A stretch of DNA of 64,000 nt from Ophelia neglecta (lineage: Eukaryota), in the NCBI GenBank assembly GCA_965285935.1, contig OZ260663.1, positions 48,422,001 through 48,486,000 of the forward strand, in the 5' to 3' direction. The position numbers and the translations under genes are program-made. The first letter of the stretch is position 1. Each line of letters opens with the position of its first letter. Below, in pieces: positions 1 through 48,139 of this stretch. A model generated the notes under the pieces. That model was not told the origin of the DNA and did no database searches. It saw only the letters and a program-made list of their open reading frames with translations.

Positions 1-3000
1 CACTTTTTTGTTCTGCATTGTCTTCCTTTTTGTCAGTACCTTGAATGTCAAATGGTGATTATGTCATTCACATTGTTTACAGACCCCTAACACCAGCAGT
101 CTCCCTTCAGTACAGGAAAACACAAACATAGCAGCAACGAATTTTGGCACATTCTGCTTTTATCCAATAGTACAATGAATCATATTATATAATGTATGAG
201 AATTTTCCCCACATGTAAATTTAGTGCTGGCAGAATTCAATATCATATGGGACATATTATAGAAACAGAAAACCTTTGGTAGAATGCTTTGACCAATATA
301 TTCCTCCTGTCAAAACTTATCACATATTAAGGAGGGTTGAGTTTAGTTTAGACTTTGGGGATGATATACTGAGAGAGCTAGATGCAAGCCAGGCTATGAT
401 TTGTTCAATCACATGTCCAGTGCAACAAAAGAATTTGTCATTGAATCTCCATTTTTCTTTCCATTCTCATGAACCAAGGTTATCCTTCCATGGCTAAATT
501 CCAACAGGAAATCATGATCAGTATTCAACATGCCTGAAGCTTTGACCAATAGATGATTTTATGTCATATATTTCTTTAATCATTTATTTGATTTATTTTA
601 CTTTCATTCCAAGGCACACTTTTTCATTGAATAATATAACTAAACTTTGTATATTATCATCAGCTATACAGTTTATATATATATACAGTGAAACCTGGAA
701 ATTAGGGACAGGCAAGGGACTGTGTTAAAGTGCCCTGTTTTCTAAGGTGCCCCTAATTGCAAGGTAATTTTACATGTAAATCGATATGTTGGGTCCTAAT
801 GTAGCTGTCTCTAATTATCAGGTGCCCCTAATTTCCAGGTGCCCTTTAGACCAGGTTTCACTGTATATATATATATTCGAGCACATGGAGTGGAGATGTT
901 TGAGCCTTTGATTTATTTTCTAATGGTCCTTGAAATGGTCGTCAATTGTGTGCCTTTATCTACTAGTACAGTGAACATGAGTATGTTTTGCTGGCTTTGC
1001 TAAGTAACCAAAGACAAATGAACACCTATATACACTGGTACGTAGGAAGAAATTGATCTTTTCATATTCAGATTGATCAAGTTTGTGATTATGGAACACC
1101 TATAGATCAAATGAAGGAGACAATATACATGTATTATATCATTAATGGACCGTTAAACAATAATGTGCATCCATTAATGATACATATATTTACATGTATA
1201 TATCTATCTACCATCCCAGTGAGTATCCCCCCCCCTCCCCCCCCCCAACCACCACCAAGAACAAACAGCTCTTTGTTGTTACCATTTATGTGATTTTTAT
1301 GTCTTTATTCTGAGCAAAGTTCATCAATCCCTGGGATTAACTGTAGTAGATGGAAGTCAATTTCAAATATGCTTGAATTTTCAGGCCATTTTTTTGCAGA
1401 TACAATTCCATATCTTGTACTTACATTTATATTTTTCAAATATCATATTTGAAAATCTGTTCACATTTATGTTTTTATTTGGCATTGCAGAATGCATAAT
1501 TCTGATGCACAATATTCTTACTTATGGAAGAGCATTACCTGTAATAACCTATCCCAGTGAATTAACTGGTCAATAGGGATTTTATCATGCTTATTACCTA
1601 CATGTATGTGTGTGTAGAACAGACTCCTCTTCTTACAAATAATAAGTGTGTGATGTGAAAATAAAAATCAATTTCCCTCTCAGGTAATACATAGATAAAG
1701 ACATGCCATGTTAGGCAGACTCATAGGTAAAGAAATCAGTGTATACCTGTAGTTATATGTACATGTAGGTGTTAACCACAACACTGCACATTAGGAATGC
1801 CCCCATGCTTTGGTATTCTCTCAATTACCTTCTAGTTTTTATAAGAACCACAAAAATAAGAGTTTCTATGTCATTGCACCTTGAAACTTTGCCAACTGCA
1901 ATCCAAACAATTTCCTTTTCTAGCAACTACCTTTATCTTACAAGATAAATTATAGATCAATATTTTGACCGTTGCTAATAACAAACAAGGTTGGAAGGAG
2001 ACGAGCTTGGATCATATTGAGAAAAAAAATTAATGTTTTTCATTTGATGGCCACGGTTGCAAAGATATAAGTATACTTGTGAGCTTTATATGTGCTTAAA
2101 TACTTGAAATTTGTAGGAGCTGCCAGAATTGTTCCCCAAACTTAAGTTGTGAGGATGGGTGATACATCACAGCTCTGATAGTGAAGTATAGTTACCAAGT
2201 CGCTGGTAGGACATAGTCATGAAATGACCGATCAAATACCTAAGGAAAGCACATAGTACCAAGCGACTGATGATCATAAAATGTTGTTTATTCTTTGTTT
2301 GTAGAAACAATGATAGGCTAGGCTAATTTATTTGGGGTGGTAACTAGCATGTCATGAATATTTCACAAATGATAGGTAACAACATTATTCATAAGTTTAC
2401 TTAAGATTTTTAACTCGGAATATGTTAGCACTAACAATTCTGTGAGATAAAGTTAGCATTCAAGTATTTGCCTGTGCACAGTTATTGTTTTACTGTGAAC
2501 TCTGGATGTGATTATAAAGCTGTACTATGTGTTTAATAGGTTGATGCCTGCCTGACATGAATATCATATCTGAATGCTTTCATACATTAATAAAAATGGG
2601 AAAAGAGTAATGATTGTAATTATTAGATAAGGAGTTGCTTTACCTGAAATAATTTCCATCTGTTTTTTATTATTGTTTTGTTTTCAACCTTTATATTATT
2701 TCAACAACTGATATAGAAATTATTACTTATATATATAATCTTAGTTAATTTGAAGGGAAAGGGAGTATTAGTTTTGTACATGTATCTGATAATACCACCA
2801 CCTAATCCTATTATACAGAGGGAAGTAATAATTAGCACAAGTAATTATTATGATGTTATCAAATAACTTAAACAAAAGTGTTTGTCTTAACTCACCTGAC
2901 GGAATTAATGGACAAATATATTAGGAGGCATAAGAAGTGATACCCATGAAATACTCTCCAATGGATCAAAAACTTCTAGTGATAATTCAAATGAAGACCA

Positions 3001-6000
3001 TCATTTATTGTTCAAGTCCATATCAAAATTTCAAGTCCATATCATGAACAGTTTCAGTTTTCAAGGTTCATATCAACGTTTCAATGGATTCTCTGTGACT
3101 TTGGCAAGTTTTTTGGGATACCACTTAATGCCTCCATGTATTAGTATAAGTACCTTTGCTTACAAAAAATTCAGTAGTGAAAGAATGGCTGTCTAACTTA
3201 AAAGATATGTAGGGTTATGTAGATTGGCATGTGCTCTTAATACCATCGCTTATAAAATATGGTATAAAAAAGGTGTGGTGATTAATGATGGGGCGATTAA
3301 TGTTCTGTGTGAGAGAAGTGAGTAGCTGGAGCCCTGTACCCCTATTTACCTGTATTTTGTTTCTCACCCTCTTCCACTGTCTGCTGTTTTTCACCCCCCT
3401 CTGGTACACTTTCAGATGCTACTTCATCTGGGGAGTGATTTTTAATGACTCAAATTTATAAGATATATCTGCCTTGACTGAGTTTTGTGTTAAGTACTTT
3501 TTAGTACTTACAAATTTCTTGGCTGTTTTATACCAAATTGAATAAAACACAGGCCACAAGCCAAAATTATGTAGATGCAAGTATTCAAAATGAAAAAAGG
3601 AAACAAAAGAATAGTTTGCCATGCAAACAGTGATGCATTATACATAGCAATATTAGACATTCCATATGTAACGTTAGTTCAGTCAAAAGCCATATTTAAT
3701 TAATAAAACAAACACTATAAACAGTTCAATATTAAGCTTAGTATGTATGACGCTGAAACACATTTTTACATATGAACAAATAATCAGTGTATTAATATTA
3801 ATATTAGCCGATATGAAACTAACATTTTAAATTTTTTGCACTATTTCTACTACTACATATAACTGTAAGTAAGCATGTAAATCCCAGGTGGTTTAAAATA
3901 TATGTACAGTTATAACTACATGAACTTACCAGTCTGGTACAGGTAAATAATATTTGACATTATCATATCTCTAATTTTAGTTCATATTATGGTAATATCA
4001 ACTTACCTTCCCCGCCTGCATCACCAGCAGCCTCACCACCACCATTCTCCGTTGCAGGCTGGGCATCTGGAAAGGGGATTTATGGTTTGAATATATTTCA
4101 GATTAAAATGAACAGTATTGCTTCACATAAAAGACTAAATGTACATAACTACAGTAAGTCAAGGGTTAAGAAGCATCATGTGAAAATGATAGCACCAGAT
4201 GCTCTTCTAGTGACGATGCAAAAGTATGTATTAATATCATGTCCTAACTGCAAATGAATTTTGGGGCATTTGGGGCATTTTTTTAAAAAGAAAAAGAAAA
4301 AAGGGAACAACAACATTGTGAGTTGAAGTTAACTTTTGGATTATTGATGATGAATGATATTCAAACAGAGTTATTGAATGGTTATTGCAAGTCCTGTGGT
4401 TCCCATGCAACAAGTATGACACCTGACAATATCAGTGTGGTTTTATGATAGGATCAATGTCTGTAGGTAGGGAAACAAACAAATTGATCACCTCCAGCCT
4501 TCAGCCAAACGCCGACAATTCAAGGTGAAATTATATCAATGACAACATTGCAAATAATTTAGACACATCCTTTAATTTATGAAGGGTTAGTAACACATTC
4601 TATAGTGTCAGATCTGAATTTCATTACGCTGTTCTATACAATGGACTTGTTTATGCGTAGCAACATATATTGATGAAACGTCTGCTTAATATACATGTAT
4701 GTATACAATTTTACTCTCCAGTTGTGAGTTTCATAGAAAATAAAGTTAAGTATATGTAAACCCATGCCTGTTCTGAGAAATTAAATTCACTTTCATAACA
4801 TTGCATGTTTTGCATGAATGACAAAAGTCACAACTAGATACTGAATAAGCAAATTAATTTGTGCCTGTTGCCAATATTTCAGACTTCACATACTATACAT
4901 CTGCAGTACCTGTATGGCATACAAGACTGTGTAATATGGATTACCTTAGAAGGTTTCTGTATTTTCTTGGGATAAAACAGAGATTATACCTATTAATTCA
5001 AGACAATAACTTAATGTTAATCATAAGATAAATCTTACATTAATATATTCAGTATTGTTCCTCCATTATTTAATGAATCAAGTACAAATACTGGTACACA
5101 ATAGTTTATCATACATGAGCTCTAAAATCCTGGATAAGCCTTAGCTTCATTAAAATCTACATATAGAATAATCAATAGATTTTGGCAATGGGCAAGTTTT
5201 CTTACATATTTGGCTATACATGCATACATTGTATATATTTTTGTCACTTTCTGTGTGTTATTTCAATATTAACTATTACATGCTAAACTTCATGCAACAG
5301 TTAGCTGATCTACATAATCAGTCTTAATTAACCAATCATTTCCTCTGACTGGTGAAATAACCTTTTTGTTGGTTAACTCAAAAGAAACCACAAACAAATA
5401 TTAACATTGTGTACCATCGCAGGCAAACATTTACACATTAACTTGCTTTTGAAAATAATTTTAAAATAGCCCTGGATGTGTCCTGTAAAATAGTATGTCA
5501 TTCCCAGTACTAAACTTAGTTTGATAAGTTCAGAACCCAAAGTTCACAAGTGTGATTAATAAAAAAAGGCATATTTCTGGACACTAAATGGCTTAAGAGT
5601 ATTTGAGATAGTTGCTAACCTGTAGTTCAGTTATAAATCAGGTGCAATGATGATTTTAGTACAGTAATGCAATAAACAAAATATCACATGGTACATGTAA
5701 TTTCATATCAGCACTCATACAGCACCCAAATGACAACATCAGCACTTGTCTCTAAGACACATGCTGATATGACAATTTGGGTGCAGATACTCGTGCAGAT
5801 ATCAAATAACCATATGATTTATATACATATCAAACAAGGTTACAATAATATTAAGTTAAAAAAACATTTCATAGTCTATACCAGCAATTATTTGAATTAA
5901 ACCAAATATAACTGTCACACTGGGAACACTGTTAAGTGTTTAAGTTACAAAATCCACATTGATAACATCTTCTATGTTCCAAAATCTTTTAAGGTGTGTC

Positions 6001-7911
6001 TGGAAATAACTAAGTCCTTTAGTTATTCTGGTTTCTGTTTGCCACACATAATCATAGATGTATACAGGTAAAATATCTGGAGACATTGGTTACATATTGA
6101 TTTACCGCTTAAATAGTTTAAAGATAAAATAATTGTCTGCTGTAGCCAATACCATAGCATGTTTACAAATTGTGACCAAGCCAATATTTTGGTCCCTGAA
6201 TCTTTGGATTCATGTCTTGATCAAACAAGAGTATGCAGAGCTCAAATGTCTCAAGAGCACTATAGTGCCATCTTGCCTGGCAGCCTTAGATTTATCAAGA
6301 ATTTTATATGTGACAAGTTCCTTATAGAGCAAAATGGTAAATAAACTGTGCATATATATTTTGAGGGCTAGGCCGATACTCTTGATAATATATTCATGAC
6401 AATGAATGATTAGGTCCTAAGCTTTATATACATGTACATGATGACATTTGTCCATCACAAGGTCTGATTTGGCAAAACACAATTGACTTTCATGAGCAAT
6501 AATCAATGATCACTAACTTATAGGTAGATACATACAGTGTATACATATTTGCAGTACCTTGATATCCTTAACTTAAAGTGGATTTGTACTATTGTACAGA
6601 ATTTTCAGCTCCCTTACACTATTCATTTGGTCATAGCTATTACTTATGATATGGATTATTTATATGATGATATAACAGACAGTGCTGTCATAGAATCAAA
6701 GTCTGCATTGCACTCTCATTTCATTGTGCAAAACAAAATGTAAAAGTCAGTAAGCAACTTACTCCATAAGTCTGATTGTCATACTGAGCATGTCTGAGCC
6801 CACACCACTCATAATGACACTGATATGAACTTTGTAACACCCTTTAAGATAACACGTATAGTTACCAGTTTTACATGTCAGGCTCATATGGCAGATTGAC
6901 ACTCAGAATATATGAAAAATATTGAAAGTAGCAAGAAAACTTTACAATTTAAGTGACATCGTTTTAGCTATGAAATGGTGGCTATGAACTAAAATAACAG
7001 TGAGTGCTTTATTTGCTTTCAGTATATCTCTGGAAGAAAAAGCTGATGTTCTAGTATACTTCCATTGTTAAAAGGAAGCTCTACAATGTTGTTTGGGATT
7101 GTTGGCTAGCAGGTTCAGTTTGAGAGGTTCAGTGTGGAGTATTAGGTAATATTTGTTAATCACCTTCTGGGTTCTTAGGTGACAGTATTTTGTCTGTTGC
7201 CAGAGGTTACCTTCAAAACAATGCTTGGTAATGAGTGCCTGGTCTAGGTTTAAATGGTACCTAGAACAATCATTACAGTGGTCTTACTGTAATCCAATTG
7301 TAATAGTAAACCAAGTTTGTGTGATAAACGTAATTTAAGTTAATACTATATAACATAATAATCATTGTTGTCAATAACACTCTGCATGGTATTCTCCATC
7401 AAAAGGTACAAACAAATGTAAAAGTAAATATAGAATAGTCCTACTCATGATAATGAGTAAAATAATGATTATGATGATAATAATAATACTTATAATACAT
7501 ATATAACATGTATCAATAAATATACAGTGTCAGGATAACTAGTTAGTATAGACAGTCTCAGTTATTTATCGTGGCACCAGAAAGTAACTTGAACAAGTTT
7601 TTTTTCTTCTGTTCAATCTGCTTAAATTCATATATATTAACCACGTTGGCTATATTATTATACTAGCTAGAATATGTTCATGGAAATTCTTTTGATTGTG
7701 TCCATACCCTTCGTATGCAATAATGTCATCTAGAACTTGGCTAAGTCAAAAAAAAATTGAAAGATATCATTAAAACATGTGATAAAGTTAGTTTGTTAAC
7801 TTTAATGTTTAATATATCTAAATCAATACCTTGGGATTCGTCTGCTGGTTTATCCTCTGGCTTGTTGTTTGTGCTGGAAGGCTCTGCTGATTTGCTGCCG
7901 TTACACCCCAT
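1..7911 (-). CDS. 5' part of an uncharacterised N-myristoylated/palmitoylated acidic low-complexity protein; gene continues beyond the left edge
   Basis: ATG at 7911. Exons: 7911-7830 (MGCNGSKSAEPSSTNNKPEDKPADESQ, donor G|gtattg); 4066-4007 (ttccag|, DAQPATENGGGEAAGDAGGE, |gtaagt); 3427-3368 (ccccag|, DEVASESVPEGGEKQQTVEE, |gtgaga); 39-1 (tcaag|, GTDKKEDNAEQKS). All junctions are phase 1 and join in frame. There is a possible extra 30-nt exon at 7193-7164 (DKILSPKNPE). The MGxxxS motif plus Cys3 suggests dual acylation. Confidence 0.7.
686..863. mobile_element. Tc1/mariner-pogo (Tigger-like) MITE
   Basis: Perfect 13-bp terminal inverted repeat (TIR) CAGTGAAACCTGG...CCAGGTTTCACTG, inserted in a (TA)n run (TA target site). 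Internal subrepeats AGGTGCCC(C)T. Confidence 0.85.
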
Positions 7912-8002
7912 CTTCGTAGTATGAACTGGTAAAAGGACGGATAAAGTCACACTAAGTTCTATCTCGTGTTGCAGAGTGGCGAGAAATAGCTTTATTGGGC
8001 CC

Positions 8003-8050
8003 TTAATATAACGCGCCACGGCTGTTTGTAACCTAGGTTGCCCAAGTAAC
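8003..8050 (-). promoter_or_regulatory. Core promoter of the MGC-protein gene: TATA-like box plus RFX X-box
   Basis: Minus-strand TTATATTAA at 8011-8003, about 95 bp upstream of the ATG. GTTGCCCAAGTAAC at 8037-8050 fits the RFX consensus GTNRCC(N0-3)RGYAAC. The region is locally CpG-rich. Confidence 0.55.
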
Positions 8051-9535
8051 CCCCAATTAGGACTGGTGAAGCAAACACTCTCGGATTAATGCATTAATGC
8101 GCGCAGGCAAAATGTATGTGACCATCAGTGGTTGGCCAATCACGCTCCATGGGCGTACAACTCATTAAAGAATTTCCCGCCCTCCCCGGAGGACGAGACT
8201 TCCTCTTACTCCCTCTAGCGGACTAGGAGATCCATATGGCTTATACCACGAACACGTTAAAACTGGAAAAATTACCGAGGGCAGATGTGTGAGCAGACAA
8301 TAAACTATACTGAGTTGTGCATTTTACTATATAGCAACCGAAATGCATCATATTAATACATTCAGTGTTGCGCACCTAATCCATTAAAAGGGCCTGTAAC
8401 TTTATCACCTTAATTATAACATCTGACTTCCTAGTTGATTAAAAACTCAAAGATGTTTTGTTATAGGCCAGGAGTTAGTTATTACAAAGGCAATATTGAT
8501 ATAGGGCCTTATAAAGGACCAATATGTATAAATATATGTTATTTATCACAATTTTCGTATGAATTGACCAAAAGCCAACATGGTTTCTTCATGTGTGACT
8601 TGTTTCCTCTTGTGTTGACGACCAGAGCCACTCCGCTATACACTTGTCTACATGCCCTTTGTATTATCCCATAATAAATAGTTTGTTCTGACAAAACAGT
8701 GCTACTTAGCTTTCTTCCTTTCATAGCAACTATATACAAGCATGTGGGATCCCCTCTGATCACTTGAATGACTGAAGAACCCTCATATTGTTAAGTCCTA
8801 TACTTTTTACAATTAGAAAAAATGGCTATATCTGGTATCTTTATTTATGAATATATACAGACAGTCAGAGACCCATAAGATCAAAAGCCCAATAGGCAAA
8901 TTGTATTTAACATATAAAATGAAACTAAGGAGATACGCGTATTTAACTGGATAATAGTACGTACACACGGCGCATATTTCTATCGATCGTACATATAAAT
9001 AAGCTTTTATGCACCAGTGAAGTCATTGACATGTTCTTATAGGATTATGAACAATTGTTACTACCCTAAATAACTTTTCTTACGTTGACCAATTTGCACG
9101 TCTTTTCGTATTCATAGGCTTGTACGTATATATTATATAGACATATTCTCGAAGACCTATTATATCTACCCTGTTACCTTTCGATGAATGTACGGGTAAC
9201 GTATAGCATTCAAGAATTATTTTCATGCCATATACATGTAGGCCTAGGCGTGCCCCGACTAGCAGCCCTATACATCGTCCCGGGACTGTTCCTACACTTA
9301 AAGCTAATTTTTCATCTTAGAAAACACATTTATAAAAACAACAACAACAAACAGACTTTCAAAACAAATGCTTGTTAATTCCTTTTGACCTGATGATTCG
9401 ACCAAAAGAAAAATCATATAACACTATGAAAAAAAACCATGGATACCTTCTGACAACCGATTGGCTGTTGGTATCATGCTGAAAGTACTCTTTTTAAATT
9501 ATGCGAGGTCTGTTGGCAAAAGTCCTTTTTCAGAT

Positions 9536-10780: not shown

Positions 10781-12034
10781 TTGTTGGGAGACCCATATAT
10801 CTATAGCCGATGTTGGCTAGTTTCTCCTCGGTCTCTTTCTGGTAAACATCAAGGTCAACTCGGTTCGGCAAACTTAAATTTAAACTTAAATTTAATCATT
10901 CAAAATTGAGGTATATTTTCATTCTTGATGTTTGAATTTTGTTACCATGGAAACCCGACATATCAAGCATTCGTATCCTATCAGAAACATCCTTATACTC
11001 AGCTCAATGTGTTGAGCATATTTTTAGTCATTGTGATCACCAATCACAGTGAAACGCACAGTTTCTATTTAGCCAGATATAATTAAATACCCGTTACCAT
11101 GGTAACATCTTAACCAAACCCATCGTGTGATACATCAACCGAGAGCCCCTGAACTTGGTTACATTTCGTACAATCATTATGTTTTAAATTTTCCTTGTTT
11201 TTCATATATTCAGCGAAATGTTGACAAAATGCCCTAATTGGACCTTGTTTCAGGTACAATCAGGATGGTTGCCATAGTAACAAAGCCCTCAATTACGACA
11301 ACGTATAGCAGAAACCACACAGACATCATATGGACATAGTCTAGCATACTAAACATTATATCATCAAGTTGATTTTATCTGTAGTTTTATTTAAGCAAAC
11401 AAGTGTAATTTTTGTTGTTTGAATCCGGTTACCATGGAAACGTGACATATACTGCATTGGTATCTTATCAAAAGAAAAATATCCTCATTCGCCTGCCTCA
11501 TGTGACAATTTTTTGAATCACCTTCATTATAGCTCAATGTGTTGACAATATTTGAAAGTAATTGCAATCACCTAACACAGTGAAATGAACGTTTTCTTCT
11601 TGGCAAGACATAATGGATACCCATCGTCATGGTAACATCTTACCCAAACCCATCGTGTAATACACCAAACGAAAAGCCCATGACCTTGGCTACATTTCGT
11701 ACAATCATTATGTTTTAATATTGTTCCTGGTTTTTCATATATTCAGTGAAATGTTTTAAAAATGCACTATTTGGACCTTGTTTCGGGTACAATCGTGATG
11801 GTTGCCATAGTAACCAAGCCTTCGATCACCAATATGCCTTGCCGATGCCAAACAGACTTCATACAGATTCACCCCAGCCCCTTGATTCCCGTTTCCATGG
11901 CAACCACGGGTTTCCCTACGGGAGTTGAATCTAAACTAATTGATATATGTCAGAAGACACCTTTCCAAACACATTGGTGAAAAAATTTCTTGGTAAGGAA
12001 TTTGTTCCCAGATTTTCACTAGGCCCCCTGACTA
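10781..12034. mobile_element. Non-autonomous repeat (Helitron/Helentron-associated type) with internal ~0.5-kb tandem duplication and multiple X-box palindromes
   Basis: Two diverged copies (about 10941-11290 and 11428-11820). Terminal hairpin TAGCCGATGTTGGCTA near 10803; 3' end CTAGGCCCCCTGACTA. No coding capacity. The family assignment is inference. Confidence 0.6.
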
Positions 12035-12083
12035 TCATCCAGTTGACGGGCTTATCCACTTATCCACGACTCCTTTTTTACTG

Positions 12084-12825: not shown

Positions 12826-14537
12826 TCAATCTAGATTTCTGGAGCTTTTCAGACTGAGTTTAAACTGGGATATTCCAGTTGATGATTTTATATTTACTGG
12901 CAAATTGTTCCATAATTTGGCGCCAACATAGAAAAAGCTAGACTGCCCAAAAAAGCCAACCCTAGGTAAAATAACATTATGCACACTGCCCCTAGTGCGG
13001 TGAGAATGATTAACCCTAGAATGATAACACAAGTATTCAGGGGCTTTACCAGAAAGGCACTTGAACATAAGACATAAAATATTGTAGTCCACTCTACTTT
13101 GTAGATTCAACCAGCCCAATTTACTAAAATGGCTATAGTCGATATGCTGCCTTGATCCAAGGTCACCAATAATATAAATCGAATTAACTTATTCTGGGCC
13201 GTTTGTAACATGACCTTGGACTTTTCATTAGCCCCATTAAACCAATAGGATGCTGCATAGTCAAAATGAGGTTGAATTAGAGCACTACGGAGAGTTTTTC
13301 TCAGATCATGAGTCAAAAATCCTTTTTTTCTATATAAGAATTTGAGTCTCATATTGACATGTTTGATCACAGCTTCAGCCAAACCTGTACCGCTCATTTG
13401 GTTATCCAACAAGGCACCAAGATATTTCACACTGGTTTTAGAATTCAAATAATTACCTTTGAACATAATATTTAATTGTGCACATTTTGACAGTTTACTT
13501 TTAGGGCCAAACAGGATGCTCTCTGTCTTACCAATGTGCAGAGACAATTTGTTTGACAGTAGCCATTGACTTTAGAGCCTCGAGTTCTACACCAAGTTGT
13601 TGTTCAATTACAGAAATATCTTTCCCTGAAACCATCAGCGCCGAATCGTCAGCATACAAGAACAGCTTACACTTAACAGACCCTGGCATGTCATTGACAT
13701 AGATTAAGAATAAAAGCGGGGCAAGAATGGACCCCTGTGGCACACCACAAGTTATTGACATGTCACTAGAAAATGTTCCATCTGAAAAAACTCTCTGACT
13801 TCTGTCTTTTAAATAAGAAGAAAACCATGCAATTGATACACCATCTAAAATTATAGCCTCCAATTTACCAAGCAGGATTTCATGGTTTACAGTATCAAAT
13901 GCTTTTTGTAAATCGATTAACAGCATTCCAGTTAAATCACCGTTGTTCATATTTTATTTTTTTATATCTGCCAAACTAATCAAAGCAGTTTCAGTAGAAA
14001 ATCTACATCTAAAACCTGATTGATATTGATACAAAATATTGGATTTGAGCAAATATTTATCCACTTGATTATAAATAACACATTCAAGTATCTTAGACAA
14101 GACAGGCAGTATGGAAACGGGTCTATAATTACTCGGGTCACAAGAATCTCCCTTCTTATAAAGGGGAACAACCTTTGCCTTTTTGAAGATTACAGGTACA
14201 CTAGAGGTCTCAATTGACAAATTCAAAATAAAAGTGATGGAATCTGTAACTACATCAGCAGCATCTTTCAAAAACCTAGAAGGAATGTCATCAAGAGCAG
14301 TTGCCTTCTTAACATTAAGACCCCGTAACAGATTATGAACTGTTTCACAATCAACCTTTTGCAAAGAGAACCTGTTCTTTTGTACACCTTTAGAATCATA
14401 ATATTCAACTACATCAAATACAAAACTGCTACAGCACGAAGGAAGTTTTTGCACCAGGCTGGAAGCTACATTACAAAAAAATGAATTGAAACGGCTGGCC
14501 ACTCCAGCATAATCAAATAGCAATTCATCAGTATCTG
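12826..14537 (-). mobile_element. 5'-truncated, disrupted non-LTR retrotransposon (CR1/L2-group LINE), reverse transcriptase ORF2
   Basis: Four consecutive ORFs carry RT motifs KATALDDIP, NYRPVSILPVLSKILE, QSGFR, IDLQKAFDTVNH, GVPQGSILAPLLF, YADD, KYLG and the C-terminal GKAPEYL...LWNNLP. There is an in-frame stop at 13956-13954 and frameshifts near 13560 and 13130. Confidence 0.95.
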
Positions 14538-15130
14538 AGCTGGCGTAGCGCAGCCAGCTTTTAAACGTTAACAAGTTTCCAAGCATTGAATGGTGATGCT
14601 GATTGTTGCATTGGTTTAATACTGCATCCTGATCACATGGAAAATTGTCAATTGCATAATTCACTGAGGTTAACCAGGGGTTAATCATGAAAAAGAGATA
14701 TCTAAGGTCACTGGTAATTCTCCCTTTCCATTCTTGGGGCGGGTCCATGATGCCCTGTCTGACCAAATTTTGCAATTTGAAAACAGGGAATGTCTTCTAA
14801 TTGGGAGAATATTCAGGTGAGAGATCAGCTCTGAAGGAACGATGCATTCTATAAATATATTTATATATACATATACATATAATATTATCGTGGGGCCAGG
14901 GAGCCTCAATAACCCAGCTGTGGTGACTGAGGCATGGGATGTATATCTGGTGGTTCCCGGAGGGAGGGGGAGGGGGAGGGGAGGCACACTTCCCTTTGAC
15001 ATTTGTGGGGAGGTTCTGGGAACTGTGGTGTGGTGTGCAAGGGAGCTGATGGCTGAGTAAACAAAAAATGGTATTCATTGAAGCTATTATACTTCCATGC
15101 AAAGAAAACCTAATATAGCTGGCTTGTTTT
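14538..15130. mobile_element. Putative non-autonomous element abutting the truncated 5' end of the LINE
   Basis: Begins with hairpin AGCTGGC-GTAGCGCA-GCCAGCT (14538-14559) exactly where LINE homology stops. AGCTGGCT at 15117-15124 is the inverted copy of 14552-14559 and is followed by a T-run, a Helentron-associated layout (inference). Confidence 0.4.
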
Positions 15131-16497: not shown

Positions 16498-19400
16498 TCA
16501 CTTTTCATGAAAATCAGCACCAATCACATCGGATACTTGTGTATATCCCTCTTTCCTGCAGAAAGTAACATGGAAAAAACGTTTATTATTCATTTAGATA
16601 GGAAATCCTTTCCTTTTTATAAATTTTGTATAGCAAAAATCTGTCTTGTTTTCAAAGTAATCAATATATTTCACATCATGATGTTTGAACATAAAAAGAT
16701 GCATCTGACAGCCATGCATGCAAGGTGCCGCTGGACAGACCTTAATTAATAATTGTGACTAATGTAAAATCAGAAGTGTTCACAGAAATCCGATTTTGCA
16801 AATGTACGAAAACTCACTTGAGAATTTCCTTGAGTTCACGTTTGACTTTTGAGACGAGTGGTGGGCCCTCATAGGCAAGTGATGTGTATAATTGCACCAA
16901 GGAAGCACCAGCTTTCAATTTCTCATATGCATCTTGTCCAGACATTATTCCTCCAACTCCTACTATTAGCACTTTACCTAAAGACACATAACAATAAATG
17001 ATTAGATCTAGTCACGGTAGGTTTCTGTTTCTTTATCACAATCTATCAAAGTTCACCAGACATACTAACCATCAGTCAACTTGTACATGTCTTTGATTGT
17101 TTTGGTGGCAAGGTCTTTCAAAGGTTGACCGCTGAGTCCACCCATCTCTTCTTTGGCAGAGCTTTTCAATTCAGAAGGTCTGGTTATGGTTGTATTGCTG
17201 ATAACTAGACCATCCACATGCACCTGAGACAAAATAGAACAATTTTACCCCTAACATAAATTTCTATGCATGGAGAAAAAGTATGCATATTAAGAGGCAA
17301 ATTTACCATTATCACTTTTCTTACAAGGGGATCAATATTAAATGTCAATTAAACTCATTTGGCCATCAAGTTTTCTTGCAGGCAACACAAATCTATCTGG
17401 GGTTTCCAGTTAATGTACTGAAACTGTTCAAGAAATTTAACATTAAAGAAATAAAAGCAATAATAATATCAAACAGTTTGTCCACTTTGGAAATTCAACT
17501 TTTCATCGACACACTGAATCTCTGGGCCTTTTTGGTTTGAGATGGGAAAAAATCAGGTTTTATTTTCCAATTTTTTTTATTTAACCCAATACTGTAACAT
17601 CAGTTATCAGAACAAATTTAAGTATGTTAGGCATAATAATACGTTGAAACTGACTTACATCACATTTTGTAATCACTTCCGCAATATCTATTTTGTCTTG
17701 TTCACTTAAGTCTGGGGATAATTTCACTAGCAAGTATGGCTTGTTTGAAATATCCAACTTATCTCTCTCTTCAACAACCTAGACAACATATTATGTACAT
17801 ATATATATGTACAAACAATGTGAAATTAAATAGCAAACAACAGACTGAGGGTAGGGCGCACATAGGAGAGCTAAACTGAGACTTGAGGCCTCTCACTGAA
17901 TCCTTCTTCAGAGTCTCAAGCAGCAAGTTAATAAAACTGGGTGTATTCTATAAATGATGCCATTAAATGAATACATTTGAAAAGTTCAATAGCATACCTT
18001 TGACAGTAGCTCCTGTAGCTGTTTTCTTCCCTGCAAAGCCCTCAGGCCTGGTGTATTTGGGCTAGATACATTTATTACAAGGTAATCAGCTATCAACCCA
18101 AATTTCTTCACACCCTTCACATAATCACCCACTGCATCATCAGAATTCTTATTCTTGCCAAGGTTCACCCCCAGAACACCTGGCTCTAAAAACAAGAACA
18201 TGCAGCTAGTTCTAATTTTCAATATTGCTGCTTGACAGGTTTTCTAAAATTGCTAATTTCCACAAACCTGAAAGTTCGTAGGAATGTATTAATATGTTTG
18301 TAATTCTTTCATTGTTTTCTTTCATTGATGATGATGACCCTATGTTATTTTGTGATACATTCAAACAAAGGATGACTTTTTCCAAACTCTCAGGTCACTT
18401 CAAATTAAATTGGGAATATCCTTTATTATTCAATAAAATAGATGAGATTTGTGCAGTGCCTCAGGTAATGTAGGTACCTGGCTTTTCCCTTCCCTGAAAT
18501 TGTGGTCTGTCAGGACTCCACAGGTTTTCATTTAGCATGTTCCTATCATCAGGGACCAATGGCCCTAGCAACAATTGCAGCTGCTTAATAATGTAAAATT
18601 AATGTATACTTATGTATGAATTTTACATGTTCAACTTTCCTAGAAACTTTGTAAAAGAACATTTATTTACTTCTTGTACTCCTTGATCTACATTTAATAA
18701 AATTTTGTTTAATAAAACATTATAATTTTAGTAGAGGAATGAATATTTTGTCACATTTATTAAGTATACCCGGTTTTCCTTCTAGTCTGCTGCAAAGTCT
18801 CTGATAAACAACTTCATGCCCATCACTGTTAAAGCCATATCTGAATTCATAAAAAGCAGCATTTAAATAAACAAAGTGATTTTTTTTTAAATATACCCCT
18901 GGTTATTGTGGAAAATCCACAAGAACATTTTTCCTTAAATACGTATTATTGCAAATACAAAAGATTTATTAACAAGTAATGCTGTCCATATGTGGTCAGT
19001 AATAGCCATTGATTATACTTTTTGGCTTACCAGCAATTAAATGCATTTTTTCCTTTTTTCTTCTTATTATAATCTAGTATTTTACCTAACTTGAATTTTA
19101 AAGTTAAGGACAGCCAGTACCTGTTAATAACTGCCTTGTCTTTTTTCAGCCTGAACACACGTGGCTTTGGGTTGCCTGGTTGAGGTTCTGGAGTCACACT
19201 ACCCACTTCTACAAAACCAAATCCCATTTTAAACAACCCATCCACAGCTTCACCATGTTTGTCAAAACCAGCCGCCAGTCCAATAGGATTGGAAAAATGC
19301 TTTCCCCATAAGTTGGTTTTCTGGAGACAAAAAAAAACTTCAAAATTAAATCATGAAATAAAAAAAGAAGCACTTAAATTAACTAGGATATTGACGCTTC

Positions 19401-21210
19401 CCACTTCTCCATGTAAAATAACTATCATGCATCCTTTACTACGGAGTCGTGCTGAAATAGATCATGGTGTCATGCTTTAGAAAGCTCGAGATATGCTTGA
19501 TAGTCATTTCTGTCTGCATGGTTAGATGCCAACTTAGTCTGTAGATAGACACATAGTTTATCCTACCACTTAGTCAGGGTCGACTGTTGATGCTGACAAT
19601 GTGGGACAACACACTGGAGTACAACTGAAAGTATGCCACTACTACCTCTCATAACCAATGTATAACAGTCTAAACATTTCTCATATAATAAAATAAAATT
19701 TAAAACTTGATCTCATTTACCAAAGATTCCGGATTTTCCCTACAAGTGGGAACTAGTTTGTATTTTGCAGCTTTGACGGCCAACCAGTGGGCATTTTCTG
19801 CTCCAAATAACTGCATAACAGGCATCAATACTCTCTTGTACCAAGTCTCATCTCCCCAATAGGTGGCCATTCCAGCAGCTACAAGGTGGCCTCCAATGAC
19901 AATCTCCAGTGCAGATTTCATCTTACTCTGAAATGAAACTGGCCAATTTTAGTAATGCCACTGCATCTTTATATTTACCAGCCACACAAGTTTTTCCAGG
20001 TGGACTAGAACAGGTGGAGAGGTCTGATTTAGAGCATTTAATTATAATGCCTTTGCCATTCTTTGTTTCAAAATTGATTAAAATGTAATGTTTGAACCCT
20101 GAATGCTGGCATCATGAAGACAAGTTTCAGCTTGTGTTACAAACCAATTATATGGGCATGTTACAAAATTATATCATAAAAAATTCTTTCATTTATAATA
20201 CAATGAAACAAGTCCTCCACCCCCCCCCCCCCAAGGGTAAAAATTGAACCCAGATATAAGAATTTTGCTCTTTAGTAGCTTAGATTAATTTGGCCAAGGC
20301 ATCTAAGCATGGGGCATCCCCTGGTGGTTGGGCACCCCATCCCGGGCACCAAGAAAGACAATGACGTCTTTTCTATTGCGGTGCACACCAGAGAAAATGA
20401 TTTTAGGCGATATATAGATTGAAATCACACAAAGCAGTTCTATTAACATACATAGCATCCAACTCGTACTAGTTAGTGATATCACACTATAATAAACTAT
20501 GATTCCACTCATACTTAATTAGTAAAAAATAAATAAAAAAGATTAAATAGAAAAAAAGACACAAATTTAATGATTTTTTCTTTTAATAATGCATGGCATT
20601 CAAATAATGAATAGGTAAAATAATCCCTCCTTGTCAACATCAAAGACCTGTGGGATGGAAAACACGAAAATTTCATAGCCATTACAATATTGATAGTTCA
20701 AATATTATTTTGGCAAAGTTCAATTGATGACATGAGCCCCGATGGGGACAAGTTATTAGCTTAATATAATATCATGTGAAATAATTGAACCAAATGAAAT
20801 AATTAAACATTTTGGTACCCCGTCAGGCCAACACCGGGGGGGGGGGGGGTACAGTTATGTCATGGCGGTGGTGGAGAGGGGGTGGGCAGGTAATCTTTTC
20901 TTACCTCCACCCGAATCAGCCCCCTTTGCCCCCAGCCCCCCTTAAGCCCAAAGCAAGTGACACTCTGTACCCTATTGCTACTGTTCTAGGGTAGGTAGGC
21001 AATCGGCAGATCCCACATATTAAACAGGTCAGAAGACTCGAACTTCTAGGTTCATCCCCCCCCCCCCCCCTCCTTCGGATATCGGATATTGAACACCCCT
21101 AATATAGGCCTATCCCTAATGCAACAGCTACAATAGCGATAGGGGGTAGATAAGCCTATTTACTTAGAATGTCTCCCATATAGACTTACAACTTTTTGTG
21201 TCTGCGCCAT
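16498..21210 (-). CDS. DHODH: Dihydroorotate dehydrogenase (quinone), mitochondrial, class 2
   Basis: Nine GT-AG exons: 21210-21190, 19927-19721, 19320-19121, 18840-18770, 18185-17998, 17778-17659, 17223-17070, 16977-16818, 16555-16498. Total 1179 nt (392 aa). Motifs [73 protein letters not shown]. Confidence 0.97.
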
Positions 21211-24614: not shown

Positions 24615-26585
24615 CTATTTCTGAGTTGAAGTGACTTGTCGACTTGGTCTTCCGTTTGATTTCTTGGACAAGTACTGTTTAACATTAGTTCTGATTGGTC
24701 TTAGACCAACACTCTCAATGGTGGCACTTTTAATCCTAGGCATATTCCTTGAATATATCAAATTTGATGACGATTTTCTGCTCAATGGGAAGGGAAGATT
24801 CTGAGTCGAAGGTTTCATAAGAGATGTCTTTGGCCTCGGAATCGGTTCACTCGTGACAATAGAAACTTTTCCCATATTATTGCCTGGAATGTTGGTTTTT
24901 GGACTATTGTTGGGAACGGATTTTAAGTCTTCATCTTTGGTACTTTTTGCAAATGTAGTGAATTGAAACATTGCGCTACTGGAGGCGTGTTCGTAATCAT
25001 CTCTCATATCTTCGATAAGCGAACGGGAGTCAATCGTCCTGTCATCCTCGGATAAACTAAAACTAGGCACGACTTGAGATATGGAGGCTTTACTGTCCAG
25101 GCGACTTAGCATACTAACGTCACTTTGTAAGTTGTCTGCCTGACAGACCTGTGGCTGATTGAGGCCGAATTGCTTGTCATTCTCGGCTTTAAGCGGCTCA
25201 CGGTGGACTGCGACTTGGACAACGATATTGGAGTTTGGTTCGCTGGTCTCCGATGCCTCGGGGGAATTGGCCCTGGGCACCCCCCTCTCAGACGACTCTT
25301 CATACAAACCGTTTTGACCCAACGCTAGGTATGTATCACTGGCAGCGCAAGTAGCACCAAAAGCATCCGTACCAGTTTGGTCTGTGTCACCTCCAATGAT
25401 ATTCTCTGGTGTGATGGCTAAATCTGCATTGGTGTTTTTGCTGTCATTCCCCAGTCCACTTGTTTCTACTTGGTCGTCCGAGTGTGTATTTAAGCTGTTG
25501 CTGCTTCCCCTACGAGGACAGGCAGAGTTCTCCGGATCTGTCGCACTCTCTGTAGTGAGACGTGCCCGAGCGGCTTTAGGACGATCAGCCTCATCGCCGG
25601 AGAAAACAGCAGTCCTTTTTTCCAGCTCACTAGTTTGTTCGTTTACGGTCAGACTGTACACAGAGTCCGTTTCATGGTCGTAAAGTGTTGGTCGCTTCTC
25701 AGGTAAATGATGCGTTGATGTTTGCCCCGTTATTGGTTTATTTTCTTGAGGTCTATTAGACAGCCAAGCAGGTGAATCAGTAAATATTTCATTTAGCTCA
25801 TCCTCCGTCATTACCATTAATTCATGTAAACATGAGGCGGATGGATACTTAGTGCTCATTTTATTTTCTCCTGCCGGCAGAGTGTGTGGTTTGGCCGAGT
25901 GAATAGGAACTAGAGAGGTTGGTTCTTTGCCACCAATGTCAATGGTAAATATATCTAAAGGAATTCTTTTTAGAGCGCTTCCTATATGGGTATACTGAGA
26001 TTTCACTGACTTAGCTGAACCCGGCCTCATTAGATGCTTTTTTAGCATTTCTTTTTTTGTCAATCCATCGTCGGTGGAAGGAGTAGCCCGGTCTCTCCTC
26101 ACTTGTCCAATGATCAGATCGTAAAAATTAGGCTTGATTTTTCTGGCCTCCTTCGTCTTTCTCTCTTTTTCCTGTTCTTCCATTATTTTGATCATTTTGT
26201 CTCGGGTTTCGCAGATCACCACACATGCGACAACGATGGTAAAGCAGCCACATCCCATGAGGACAGGACCGGTATATGCAAGGACCCGAAAATGTTTGGG
26301 CGCCGTTGTGTCTCCGGGGACCGACCACGTGTTAGTACCATTGTTAACCTCCTCCGAGGAAAAATGTTCGGCGTAATACCCAACGGTGCACATCGCAGTG
26401 CCGCCCATCAGAATTAACAAGCCCACAAAAACCGCGACACATGTTGACCACATGAAGGGAACGTAACATCGAAACTTCCGCTTTGGTTTCCTAGGTTTGG
26501 GCTGCTTGAAGAGCACAGAGTTCTGAGTACCTCGCCTGTTGGCGTTGAGTAAAATCCGCCCTGATATACCTGCTCTGGCAAACAT
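24615..26585 (-). CDS. TMEM200: TMEM200-family (DUF2371) transmembrane protein, 656 aa
   Basis: Single long ORF. A basic N-terminus is followed by TM1 (VAVFVGLLILMGGTAMCTVGYY), TM2 (YTGPVLMGCGCFTIVVACVVICE), the ETRDK motif and a long disordered S/T-rich tail. This is the TMEM200 architecture. Probable 5'UTR intron 28975-27162 (CAG|gtgagt...tttttcag). Confidence 0.88.
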   Translation of the reverse strand: MFARAGISGRILLNANRRGTQNSVLFKQPKPRKPKRKFRCYVPFMWSTCVAVFVGLLILMGGTAMCTVGYYAEHFSSEEVNNGTNTWSVPGDTTAPKHFRVLAYTGPVLMGCGCFTIVVACVVICETRDKMIKIMEEQEKERKTKEARKIKPNFYDLIIGQVRRDRATPSTDDGLTKKEMLKKHLMRPGSAKSVKSQYTHIGSALKRIPLDIFTIDIGGKEPTSLVPIHSAKPHTLPAGENKMSTKYPSASCLHELMVMTEDELNEIFTDSPAWLSNRPQENKPITGQTSTHHLPEKRPTLYDHETDSVYSLTVNEQTSELEKRTAVFSGDEADRPKAARARLTTESATDPENSACPRRGSSNSLNTHSDDQVETSGLGNDSKNTNADLAITPENIIGGDTDQTGTDAFGATCAASDTYLALGQNGLYEESSERGVPRANSPEASETSEPNSNIVVQVAVHREPLKAENDKQFGLNQPQVCQADNLQSDVSMLSRLDSKASISQVVPSFSLSEDDRTIDSRSLIEDMRDDYEHASSSAMFQFTTFAKSTKDEDLKSVPNNSPKTNIPGNNMGKVSIVTSEPIPRPKTSLMKPSTQNLPFPLSRKSSSNLIYSRNMPRIKSATIESVGLRPIRTNVKQYLSKKSNGRPSRQVTSTQK

Positions 26586-29379
26586 AGTTACAATTGGTCG
26601 ATATCACACAAACAATGGTTCCCAACTCATATTGTAATTAATCATTATCCGCACATGACAAACACGGCGCTGCGGGGAATTGAATCAACTTGTCTTGTTT
26701 TTTCCCATTGATTTTCTGAACTTTGCCCCTGGCATTCTCTTTCCTGGACTCCCGTACGTATGTGTTCAGCCGGTAATGTATGAACAAGCTACGTAATGTT
26801 CATCTTTGTTTCTAAAGCTCGGGAGGCAAAACCGCCTCGGTTCCTATTTGTTGCCTCAATCGATGTATTGATTGCCATCGCTTTGTCATCAGTCAGCTCA
26901 CTATGTCAGCAACAGGGTAGCAATCAATAATATCGACTAACAAACTTTAAGATTTCACGTCTTCCGGGATTTCACATGTTTGTTTTGTATCGTCTAGATA
27001 TACGCGTCTTTCCGCGAGTTAGGTCTAGATAAATCATGTGAAACAGGTTCTATAATCGAATGGAATAAATCTTAGTTTAAGCAATTTCCTTTGCAATGCC
27101 GCTCATAGTACCTCAACGTCTTGCAATGGAATTGTTTCGGGCGCAACTTTTCATTTTCAGCCTGAAAAAAAATTGTGATAAAACGAATAAGGCCATATAA
27201 TTATTTGACTAGAAGTTGATCCTTGAGGAATAAGCATATAGCCTATTACTAAAAATTTTGATCCGTCATATCTAATATCTACCAACAATTCTGTCTGTAC
27301 TTCATATAATGTATATTTAGGACTTGGGGTTCAATATAGTGTTATTACGCACAGGCCCAAGTCAATCGTTATCTCTCCCATGAAGCTGAATTATTGACTT
27401 CTCTCCTCCAGCCATGCTCATGAATGACATCGTTCTGATCAATCCGATTTTCACTGTTTACAACCTCGTGTTGAGCATTAAGGCATGCTAGTCAGGGGTA
27501 CTTTGAATACACACAATCCCTTGTCGTGTTGAGCGTCTGAAATAAAAGTTTGGTGTTATGAATTGCCATGTTTGTTATTTATCGAGTTGTTTCTTTTTGG
27601 ACTTGGGTGTCATTGGGCTGTCTACAAATAGGAACGTTAATTCGGTGATACAGAACGGAATTTTGTATTTAAAGTAGAGAGCTAGTGCATGCACATGGAT
27701 GTTCCTCTCTTTCTTGTAGGTCATATCATATGAAAAAAAAACCTTTAGAGCTTGAGCGATCCAATCTTGCTATGTCAACAAGGAAGGCCCGAGTCGACAG
27801 TTGATGCAAAATACAAGGCAACATATTACCCCATATATAATACACAAAGGCACTGCAGAAGTGAACAGGTGGCAATTTAATCTTATTCGAGCTTAAAAAA
27901 CCGTAAAAAGGGTCTAAACTGTAAACCCTTTACCCGGTAAAAAAAGAGACAAAGACATTTTCAATGTCCGTTCAACAATATACTATGCAAGAAAAGGTTT
28001 AAAGTCTCCTGCTCATGCATAAGAAAAGAGAGCAAAGGATAAAAGAATCCGTTTGGATTGAATATCTTTGCTATATAGCATGGCTATAGCAAAGCTAATA
28101 ATGAAACATTGTCCACTATGAAGTCTGTATCGTGTTCCAATCCTATATTATATAGGTCTAGGAAACAGAACTTTTAACAACGCAACTTACATAAAGTTTT
28201 GTGAATTCTTTTGTAGCCCTTTAACCGGAATGAAAACTGAAATTCTTCAGACTGGATAAAAAACTGAATTATCAAATCACCTATTCAATTAGGAAAAGCA
28301 TACAAGTAACAGCAGATGGCATTATAATACAAATTGGAAGTAAAAAATGAAAAAATGATAAAGAAGAATGGGCTTATGCTCCCCAGTATGGCTTTTGGTT
28401 GGCACAAATTTCGCTAGCTATTCTATGATGTTGTGGAATTATTATTATACATGTGAGAGAGTATGCGTGCTTCAGTGGTATTCAGCGTGAGGTTCGGTAA
28501 CTTCAGGTTTCTCTAGCACGGGGAAAAGTTTAATGTCTTCTACTCATGAAACTAGGAAACCAAGGCGACTTTCAAAATTGCGAAAATTTTAGACATTTTT
28601 CCATGGCTATGGAAAGTCGCATTATGTTCCCGGCCTGCTTTTCGTTGCGGGGGTTTTAAGCCATCCTGGTTAATTTGTTCACTGCTTCTTGCACACTGAC
28701 ACGAGAAGAAATGAGCGACTTCATTACTACTTCAATAGACGCCTATGAGATGAATTCAGAAAAAAAACTACATGTATATACACTCAACTATTCCTCAGTT
28801 ATCTCAAACAAATCTACCTTTTCCCAGACATATACGGCATTGTGTTTATTGCTGTAATACTAGGGTGTCGTTCCATTATGTCATTAAAAAATAATCAAAC
28901 CGCGTACTGAGAATCTAACTTGACTTTGAATAAAAAATATTAGACAGGAGTTGTTTATTCAAATTTTTGACTCACCTGGTTTCCCTTATATTAAGAACGC
29001 CCTCAGGAACTCTCCTTTTTAGTGTGCTTTGATCGAAAAGAAAACTACAGATAATGAGGGCATTCAGGTTGAACGTCAAATTATATCACAGTTTATCCTA
29101 CTGGCGGACCGACATATAGAACATCATCTGCATGCGCTTGTGTTATTATGCCACAACAAAAGTATCTTCAAAATTTGAAATCAAACACAGCTGCTACGGT
29201 TTCGACTCGTGTACTGTCTTTCTGACAGCATTGGACAGACTGCTAGTCAGCCAGTCTGTACAGTATTCTGAACATCGAGCGCGTGTTCAATCCGAATACT
29301 GGAAAACAAATGCCTACATTAAAAGTCACTAAAGGGCATTTACAGACTCTAGCTAGATACTTTGTATTTTAGTTCCTTT

Positions 29380-44400: not shown

Positions 44401-45879
44401 CGTATGCCCAATCCAAGACTCATTTTCTTTGTACTGACTTCAGATTCCAGAAAATAAGCCCCAACCCAGATGCATTATGGCCAACAGATTGACATAGATT
44501 ACAACTAAGGTGAACTTACCAATCTCTTAAACAATTCCAGCTGGGTTTGTGAATAGTCAGAGGCAGCTAATCTGGTAAATTCAGTGTCAGCAGTGTTAAC
44601 CTGCAAAATATAACATTTTATTCAAATTCCAATGAATAGTAAAATGCAATGTAATAGTTTGTTCCTTTGCATAAATGAAGTAATGAGTGAATAAGTGTAG
44701 AAGCAAATATTGAATCCTTTTAATACATGTTCAGTCAGATAAGGTATTATATTTTTTCAATGGCATTCAATATTTGATTTTTTGGATATGGAACCTGTCT
44801 TTTGGCAGAAAGCAACTCCGGCAAATAAATCAGAACAATGCTTAATTTATGGGTTTTTTTTCCTTTTAATAGTCAAATCTATTTTGCAAGGTCATTTAAA
44901 ATAATGAAATACCTTGCACACACAGAGTAACTGTTGCAGAATTCCTAGCTAAAACTTGAGTCAAATCTCTAATTTCTGTGTAATACATGTAAACATTTAT
45001 TCTCAAGAAACACAAAGACAAGTGAAATGTTTTTCAACCAATTTTTTTCTTTAATATACTAGTAAGTCACGATTTCTGTCCAGTTCAGCCATAAAAGGGA
45101 TATTTTGTGTTGTTTTATCAGCTGGTACACCACATTTTTTCCAGGTAATTTTTTTTTTTTTTTAACCTCTAATCAGTATTAGATAGACTTAATTCATAAA
45201 GTATAGAAAACATGCATATTCAAAGTTGAATTCTTCTTTGTAATTGTCAGGGAAACAGAGACAGTTCTATGAATTGAAGTGCCATTATATATCTTGCAAG
45301 TTAAATTAAATGTAAACAAACTTACCAAGCAATACGACTGCTTGGCACTTTCCTCAGATATGGCTTTCTTGATTTCCAAGTGAATAGGCTTTATATGCTC
45401 ATTAATAATGCTGACAAATTCAACCAAATCTGCATCATCCTCTGAAAACCAAACAATTCCTTAAATGTTAGTACCCAAAAGTCTTGACAAACAACTTTGT
45501 TACCAAGAAATAAGAGTACAGTTATTTGCTGTAAAAGTTGGGCTACATACCAGCCAAATTAATATTCAAGTGTCAGTGGAGCAGCATGTCCAATAAAATA
45601 TTTTGCTACAGTTAAAGGATATTTGTAGCTTCTAAAGAACAGTTAAATTAACAATTTTGAGCTATCTTGTATAAATCTGTGATTTTTGTGATTTGTAATG
45701 AATTTGGTCTAATATCAAAAATACATCAATATATTGCTGTAAATATCCCATATTTCACACTAACCTTGGAATCTTCTGCATGCCAACTTATGAAGTTCTC
45801 TCACTTGCTTGCCATCTATTATTCCTTTGCTCATGAATGACTGTAGAAACAATCTATGGCTGTCTCTCATGTTTGCCAT
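41456..45879 (-). CDS. NSMCE1: Non-structural maintenance of chromosomes element 1 (SMC5/6 complex RING subunit)
   Basis: Coding exons 45879-45765, 45441-45326, 44600-44520, 43961-43815, 42909-42790, 41920-41767, 41538-41456. Total 816 nt (271 aa). N-terminal HRLFLQSFMSKG, INEHIKPIHLEIKK, LTARSILELEQYI and the RING-like CNMC...CANC...HIGC...CPSQQC. Minus-strand AATAAA at 41243-41238. Confidence 0.92.
42451..42817. repeat. Recent tandem duplication (195-bp offset) including the NSMCE1 exon 5 donor
   Basis: Near-identical copies at 42451-42622 and 42646-42817. Confidence 0.9.
43300..43680. repeat. Diverged minisatellite (~22-24 bp, CCCATTCTCAGCACTGCAGCACC-like) in an NSMCE1 intron
   Basis: Roughly 15 degenerate copies with core TTCTCAGCACTG. 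Explains the spurious ORFs 43298-43531 and 43371-43634. Confidence 0.85.
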
Positions 45880-47840: not shown

Positions 47841-48139
47841 CTTTCTATGTAGACAGGGTCGTGTCGCTGGTTATGTTATCAGGTTATATGCTCAGTTCTT
47901 CAGTTGTAACAACTCTCATCTGATGCTTTCCGCCATACATCACGGAAGCTGACTCATACTCTCAACGCAAAACTTTAACACATTATTTGGCTTATTATTT
48001 ATTATTAGGAGTAGGTAAAGGGTAAAAACAAAATGTGTATGATGTTATTTTAAGATAAGAAAAGTCACAGTTGATTAAGGTTGACTTTAAATTATTTTAT
48101 GATTTGAGACTATATAAAAACTTCCGAACTGATGAAAAC
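47841..48139. promoter_or_regulatory. Putative bidirectional promoter NSMCE1 / DDX24
   Basis: A minus-strand donor AAG|GTAATA at 47841/47840 is a candidate non-coding NSMCE1 exon 1, splicing to the acceptor at 45881 just before the ATG. ETS-like CGGAAG at 47943 and CTTCCG at 48121; YY1-like CCGCCAT at 47931 and AACATGGCG at the DDX24 start. Confidence 0.55.

Follow-up and report, generated by a model that had tools for sequence, protein, structure and literature searches.

ERICH5 and comparable acylated proteins

Human ERICH5 (also C8orf47) is, in the available parts of the reports cited here, a myristoylated membrane protein without an established function. Its N-terminus reads MGCSSSALNK (PMC8689648), and its fatty-acid labelling is hydroxylamine-resistant, lowered by an inhibitor of N-myristoyltransferase (NMT) and lost in the G2A mutant. 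Excerpts of other reports place the protein at the membrane of pancreatic duct cells (PMC4278897), describe two isoforms that switch in the wounded monkey cornea (PMC13589402), assign C8orf47 to an inflammatory-response module (PMC5244706), and state for oesophageal cancer that in-depth mechanistic study is wanting (PMC13036854). The present analysis concerns a minus-strand gene at the left end of a 64,000-nucleotide stretch of the Ophelia neglecta genome (hereafter the window; positions 48,422,001-48,486,000 of contig OZ260663.1, G000:C5 in our numbering), whose predicted product begins MGCNGSK and which, on the basis of its position and features, is probably the lophotrochozoan orthologue of vertebrate ERICH5. 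Negative coordinates denote genome position minus 48,422,000 and refer to the left flank, of which 100 kb was taken.

A second group inviting comparison comprises BASP1, MARCKS and GAP43, which we take to be proteins with an isoelectric point (pI) near 4 whose Glu-, Ala-, Gly-, Lys- and Pro-rich chains have no fold. These proteins carry a basic segment that binds calmodulin or phosphatidylinositol 4,5-bisphosphate. The gene product shares with them an N-terminal acyl anchor, predicted in the present case, followed by an acidic disordered chain. In contrast, neither a basic effector segment nor an IQ segment of the GAP43/BASP1/MARCKS kind is present (net charge reaches at most +1 per 15-residue window in both protein models described below), and no match to the Pfam families of these proteins was found for exon 1 or exon 4. 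The likeness to this group proposed in the first-pass annotation of the window is thus borne out by composition and fails at the basic segment. In its way of working the gene resembles acylated proteins with acidic disordered chains, without belonging to the GAP43/BASP1/MARCKS families, and it is neither a new kind of system nor an enzyme.

A gene order shared with mammals

The gene is likely the counterpart of ERICH5 because it adjoins two genes that also neighbour ERICH5 in humans, both located here in the left flank:

ATG at -15276, stop at -7446, plus strand: RIDA (PF01042 over cut-off)
coding exons from -17823, minus strand: POP1 (PF06978 over cut-off)

Reading leftwards, the gene is followed by RIDA on the opposite strand, in a tail-to-tail arrangement, and then by POP1, which stands head-to-head with RIDA. 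In the portions available of the mammalian sources, a sheep quantitative trait locus table gives NIPAL2, POP1, HRSP12, ERICH5, RPL30 and MATN2 (PMC10376747), a human deletion list names in turn C8orf47, a garbled HRSP12 and POP1 (PMC11476383), and rat variants fall at 69.87 Mb (Matn2), 69.915 Mb (C8orf47) and 69.975 Mb (Pop1) (PMC5510834), while mouse Erich5 is assigned to the plus strand (PMC8083103). The same genes also appear, unordered, in the accessible text of PMC5386118. These gene lists were read as following chromosomal position, in agreement with the rat coordinates, and on this footing the order ERICH5 - RIDA/HRSP12 - POP1 is common to this genome and to mammals.

Besides sharing the order of the neighbours RIDA and POP1, the gene resembles ERICH5 in its MGC-x-x-S start, with four of the first six residues identical (MGCNGS and MGCSSS), and in its richness in Glu. 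ERICH5 itself, as its name suggests, is presumably a Glu-rich chain without a folded domain, about twice as long and with one large middle exon. The two differ in that searches with exons 1 and 4 singly brought out no similarity past the first residues, and in that several small exons here encode 107-182 residues. The gene had earlier been regarded as unrecognised, a description that is weakened because its neighbourhood and its N-terminus point to ERICH5, and we consider it a probable invertebrate addition to the ERICH5 family. Among the literature titles and abstract openings listed for ERICH5 and C8orf47, none concerns an invertebrate orthologue, genome databases not having been checked.

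Exon structure and predicted splicing

Seven exons are predicted over a total span of 11.5 kb, of which approximately 3.6 kb extends into the left flank:

7830..7911, minus strand: coding exon 1, 82 nt, starts MGCNGSK, ends in phase 1
4007..4066, minus strand: exon 2, 60 nt, phase 1-1
3368..3427, minus strand: exon 3, 60 nt, phase 1-1
39 leftwards (part within the window 1..39), minus strand: exon 4, donor at -20 (60 nt) or at -245 (285 nt), both in frame
-2116 to -2148, minus strand: predicted exon 5, 33 nt, symmetric phase 1, Glu-rich
-2674 to -2691, minus strand: predicted exon 6, 18 nt, symmetric phase 1, Glu-rich
from -3623, stop at -3633, minus strand: probable last exon, stop after three codons
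-3935, -4524 and -4880, minus strand: AATAAA words past the probable last exon

The first-pass annotation had read the first four of these (82, 60, 60 and at least 39 nt) from the sequence, and their positions, splice words and peptide all match: the exons have AG/GT ends and would be joined in frame in phase 1. Two of its statements call for amendment. Phase 1-1 symmetry holds for the internal exons and does not extend to exon 1, which as a first exon ends in phase 1 and is not symmetric; and the four exons stand, while the fourth measures 60 or 285 nt and is followed by three further exons left of the window. It had rightly noted that the open reading frame list captures exon 1 alone on the strand of the gene. 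The last exon is the best of six acceptor candidates following exon 6, and none of the modelled exons contains a premature stop. The gene is single-copy, with positions 7700-8200 matching the genome once. Three sequencing runs look like genomic DNA from a single sample, without splice joints, and are uninformative on splicing. Two candidate exons, one of 9 nt at -5038 and another at -8326, were dropped, being too short to judge and past the probable stop.

The earlier suggestion that the length of the spacer could be tuned finds support in this layout, as alternative donors or cassette exons could alter it; in addition to the two donors of exon 4, exon 3 may have another in-frame donor at 3350, which would lengthen it to 78 nt. 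Exon 6 resembles the neural microexons governed by SRRM3/4 (eMIC), for which the available text of PMC10551640 describes a UGC just upstream of the acceptor: it is an 18-nt, frame-keeping exon with a UGC 14 nt before its acceptor. It departs from them in that this UGC is not distinctive here, since 173 of 741 comparable sites have one in the same place.

Intron 3 contains, at 684-863 of the window, a 180-bp very high-copy element resembling a miniature inverted-repeat transposable element. All three runs include a contig that skips it, and it is therefore probably polymorphic.

Evidence for a coding gene

The claim that this is a real coding gene is supported by three lines of evidence. When 163.9 kb was scanned on both strands (327.8 kb in all) for symmetric exons that are acidic and rich in disorder, with thresholds fixed after the exons had been seen, eight of the 13 phase-1 candidates fell within the 11.5-kb span on the strand of the gene, representing five distinct exons plus alternative donors; the same scan returned two phase-0 and three phase-2 candidates, none of them in the gene span. 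Exon 4, compared with 1.84 billion proteins, gave a single match at E<=0.001, P0121, with 61% identity (58/95) and one whole-codon gap. P0121 derives from a 1,256-base Logan contig, and its alignment spans both exon 4 donors with the frame continuing beyond the -245 donor; because it reads past this donor as the query does, it probably represents unspliced DNA of a relative, and judging from this alignment a second lineage has preserved the open frame of the longer exon 4. Finally, two allele differences in exon 2, at 4041 and 4044, are both synonymous, a weak indication given a chance of 0.068 (the pair is among the 40 listed of 53 allele differences in 1-9000).

The predicted protein and a possible mechanism

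Depending on the exon 4 donor, the product models comprise 107 or 182 residues, with a pI of 4.05-4.16 and a net charge of -25 or -27. Glu is the commonest residue (16-21%), Asp and Glu together account for 25-33%, and both models lack Phe, Trp and Tyr as well as any hydrophobic 19-mer. In a charge-hydropathy analysis the mean hydropathy of 0.30, against a folding boundary of 0.47, lies far on the disordered side, and an acidic disordered chain, as first described, thus agrees with both composition and charge-hydropathy. Pfam searches with exon 1 and exon 4, each searched singly, returned no family over cut-off, and a DUF2514 match on exon 4 (E=0.41) is regarded as noise. The start MGCNGSK likely constitutes a signal for myristoylation at Gly2 and palmitoylation at Cys3, in agreement with the earlier prediction; under the N-myristoylation rule, Ser6 and Lys7 suit NMT.

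These features suggest a mechanism in which Met1 would be removed and Gly2 acylated by NMT, after which a DHHC enzyme would palmitoylate Cys3 reversibly. As the protein lacks both a basic cluster and a hydrophobic segment, it would be anchored at the inner face of the membrane by the two acyl chains alone. Repulsion by the anionic inner leaflet would hold the strongly acidic chain away from the membrane as a polyanionic brush, which may act as a spacer or may dock basic partners and cations, at a membrane domain that is probably epithelial apical or ciliary. Use of the -245 donor instead of the -20 donor would add 75 nearly neutral residues rich in Ser, Thr, Asn, Gln and Pro, so that donor choice would alter the reach and charge density of the brush and hardly its net charge. 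Taken as a whole, the explanation that the protein is the positional orthologue of ERICH5 and a dually acylated acidic brush at the inner membrane face seems to us reasonably likely, and the orthology by itself slightly more so.

The promoter and its X-box

Both the TATA-like box and the X-box that had been reported just upstream of the gene are present, accompanied by a second site in intron 1:

8037..8050, no strand assigned: RFX-type X-box, full consensus, located 126-139 nt before the ATG in DNA present once in the genome
8003..8010, minus strand: TATA-like box TATATTAA, starting at 8010, upstream of exon 1
7196..7210, minus strand: second X-box-like site within intron 1, with a spacer of 3 nt

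The region has a CpG observed/expected ratio of 0.84 at 8000-8399 (background 0.42), and it includes what we take to be NRF1-like (8105), CCAAT (8140), GC-box-like (8186) and ETS-like (8203) words. Shuffling of the 400-bp promoter produced an X-box site in 100 of 20,000 shuffles, and binding of an RFX factor at 8037 is plausible. Genome-wide, the X-box pattern has 13,524 matches versus 3,033 for the control, or approximately one per 56 kb. The window has four sites with the fixed spacing, three of which lie in a dispersed repeat.

This repeat, at approximately 10918-12040 of the window, has at least 74 matches and consists internally of tandem units of approximately 530 bp, each with X-box-like palindromes; it probably spreads RFX-like sites and inflates the genome-wide count. 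A cluster of X-boxes at 11.1-11.8 kb, considered as an enhancer, was rejected as being this same repeat.

Alternative explanations

Two alternatives concern the nature of the gene itself. That the exons are chance splice-like words, or remnants of a dead gene from which no protein is made, could draw on the weak pyrimidine tracts at the acceptors of exons 2-5, and is nevertheless very improbable in light of the exon enrichment, the open relative P0121, the synonymous alleles, the promoter-like features and the absence of stops in the modelled exons. The idea, raised in the first-pass annotation, that these exons supply an N-terminal tether for some larger enzyme lying further left arose solely from the frame running off the window, and we give it hardly any credence. 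It fails because the frame stops at about -3633 and no domain-like open reading frame was found in the interval from there to RIDA; all six acceptor candidates after exon 6 lead to a stop within 44 codons, and the next gene on the same strand, POP1, is served by a CpG-rich promoter of its own 12 kb further along.

Assignment to ERICH5 has a more substantial competitor, namely that the gene encodes a dually acylated acidic protein specific to its lineage, is not related to ERICH5 and lies beside the conserved RIDA-POP1 pair by chance. Several observations lean in this direction or otherwise count against the orthology and brush reading. The homologue search with exon 1 yielded nothing among four candidates, exon 4 gave no word-search match and P0121 as its single protein hit, and exons 1 and 4 searched singly (two of the seven exons) revealed no vertebrate relative; a pattern search for homologues confirmed none of 319 matches. 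The MGC-x-x-S start is fairly common, one coding of the pattern having 68 matches in the genome versus 27 for the control. The synteny of the gene with RIDA and POP1 is known from one invertebrate genome, the one examined here, and its other neighbours are unlike, with DHODH upstream here versus RPL30 and MATN2 in mammals; the mammalian strands of RIDA and POP1 are presumed to follow the same layout. Exons 5-7 are predicted from sequence features alone, and while acylation and inner-face attachment would follow from established rules, the brush function and the binding of partners are conjectural. Against a lineage-specific origin, position, start motif, Glu-rich composition and absence of domains would all have to coincide, and the chance that a random neighbour starts with MGC-x-x-S is roughly estimated, without computation and without counting composition, at below 1%. 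We therefore regard such an origin as unlikely and retain the assignment to ERICH5. Compatible with this assignment, and held only tentatively, is an RFX-driven protein of the ciliary membrane, as the first-pass annotation had envisaged. In its favour stand the full-consensus X-box 126 nt from the ATG in unique DNA, its rarity among shuffled promoters and the second site in intron 1. However, X-box matches abound in the genome and within the repeat, and the promoter also has general CCAAT, GC, ETS-like and NRF1-like words; because RFX sites occur in general promoters as well, an X-box alone does not make a gene ciliary. The papers listed as naming both ERICH5 and cilia have neither term in title or abstract, and the accessible parts of the ERICH5 reports point to duct and corneal epithelia.

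One 21-base word of the MGC-start type recurs often among the 68 genome matches mentioned above (for example L012, L013 and L015), and probably belongs to a repeat.

Implications

A protostome orthologue, if the assignment is true, would date the ERICH5 family back to the bilaterian ancestor, and the ERICH5-RIDA-POP1 block would have been retained since then. The double acyl anchor, the acidity and the splice-variable length would have been kept while the sequence drifted, making this an example of orthology overlooked by sequence search. A bolder and rather doubtful extension holds that ERICH5 did not arise in vertebrates but dates from bilaterians, its sequence having changed past recognition while the acylation exon, the acidity and the location next to RIDA-POP1 persisted, and that here it forms an RFX-driven brush at the ciliary membrane, with its reach set by alternative donor use together with a neural microexon. 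Such a reading, if true, would imply that the role of the human orphan ERICH5 was ancestrally ciliary or apical.

Other features of the window and its left flank

Elsewhere in the window the following features were recorded:

12826-14796, minus strand: frameshifted remnant that we take to be a reverse transcriptase like that of a long interspersed nuclear element
17986-19948, minus strand: DHODH exons
24615-26603, minus strand: long single-exon open reading frame, DUF2371/TMEM200-like
45194-45460, minus strand: NSE1-like exon, below cut-off
48059-52249, plus strand: DDX24
58756-63156, minus strand: exons that are presumably dystrobrevin/dystrophin-like

The left flank at approximately -28 to -79 kb (L004-L009) holds open reading frames that we take to be LYPLA1-like, like a gene combining F-box and ubiquitin-conjugating parts, INTS8-like, BTB zinc-finger-like, SNX20/21-like and Toll-like receptor-like. 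According to the available part of the deletion list in PMC11476383, INTS8 is also located on human 8q, hinting at a wider shared linkage. Two RidA-family matches within one 685-residue open frame at G000:C2:70628173-70628829 represent a second, different RidA-like gene. The best-scoring relatives of the DDX24 exon are mostly mollusc proteins (74-78% identity), which points to a lophotrochozoan host nearest to molluscs, and one sea-urchin record with 66% identity comes first by summed score.

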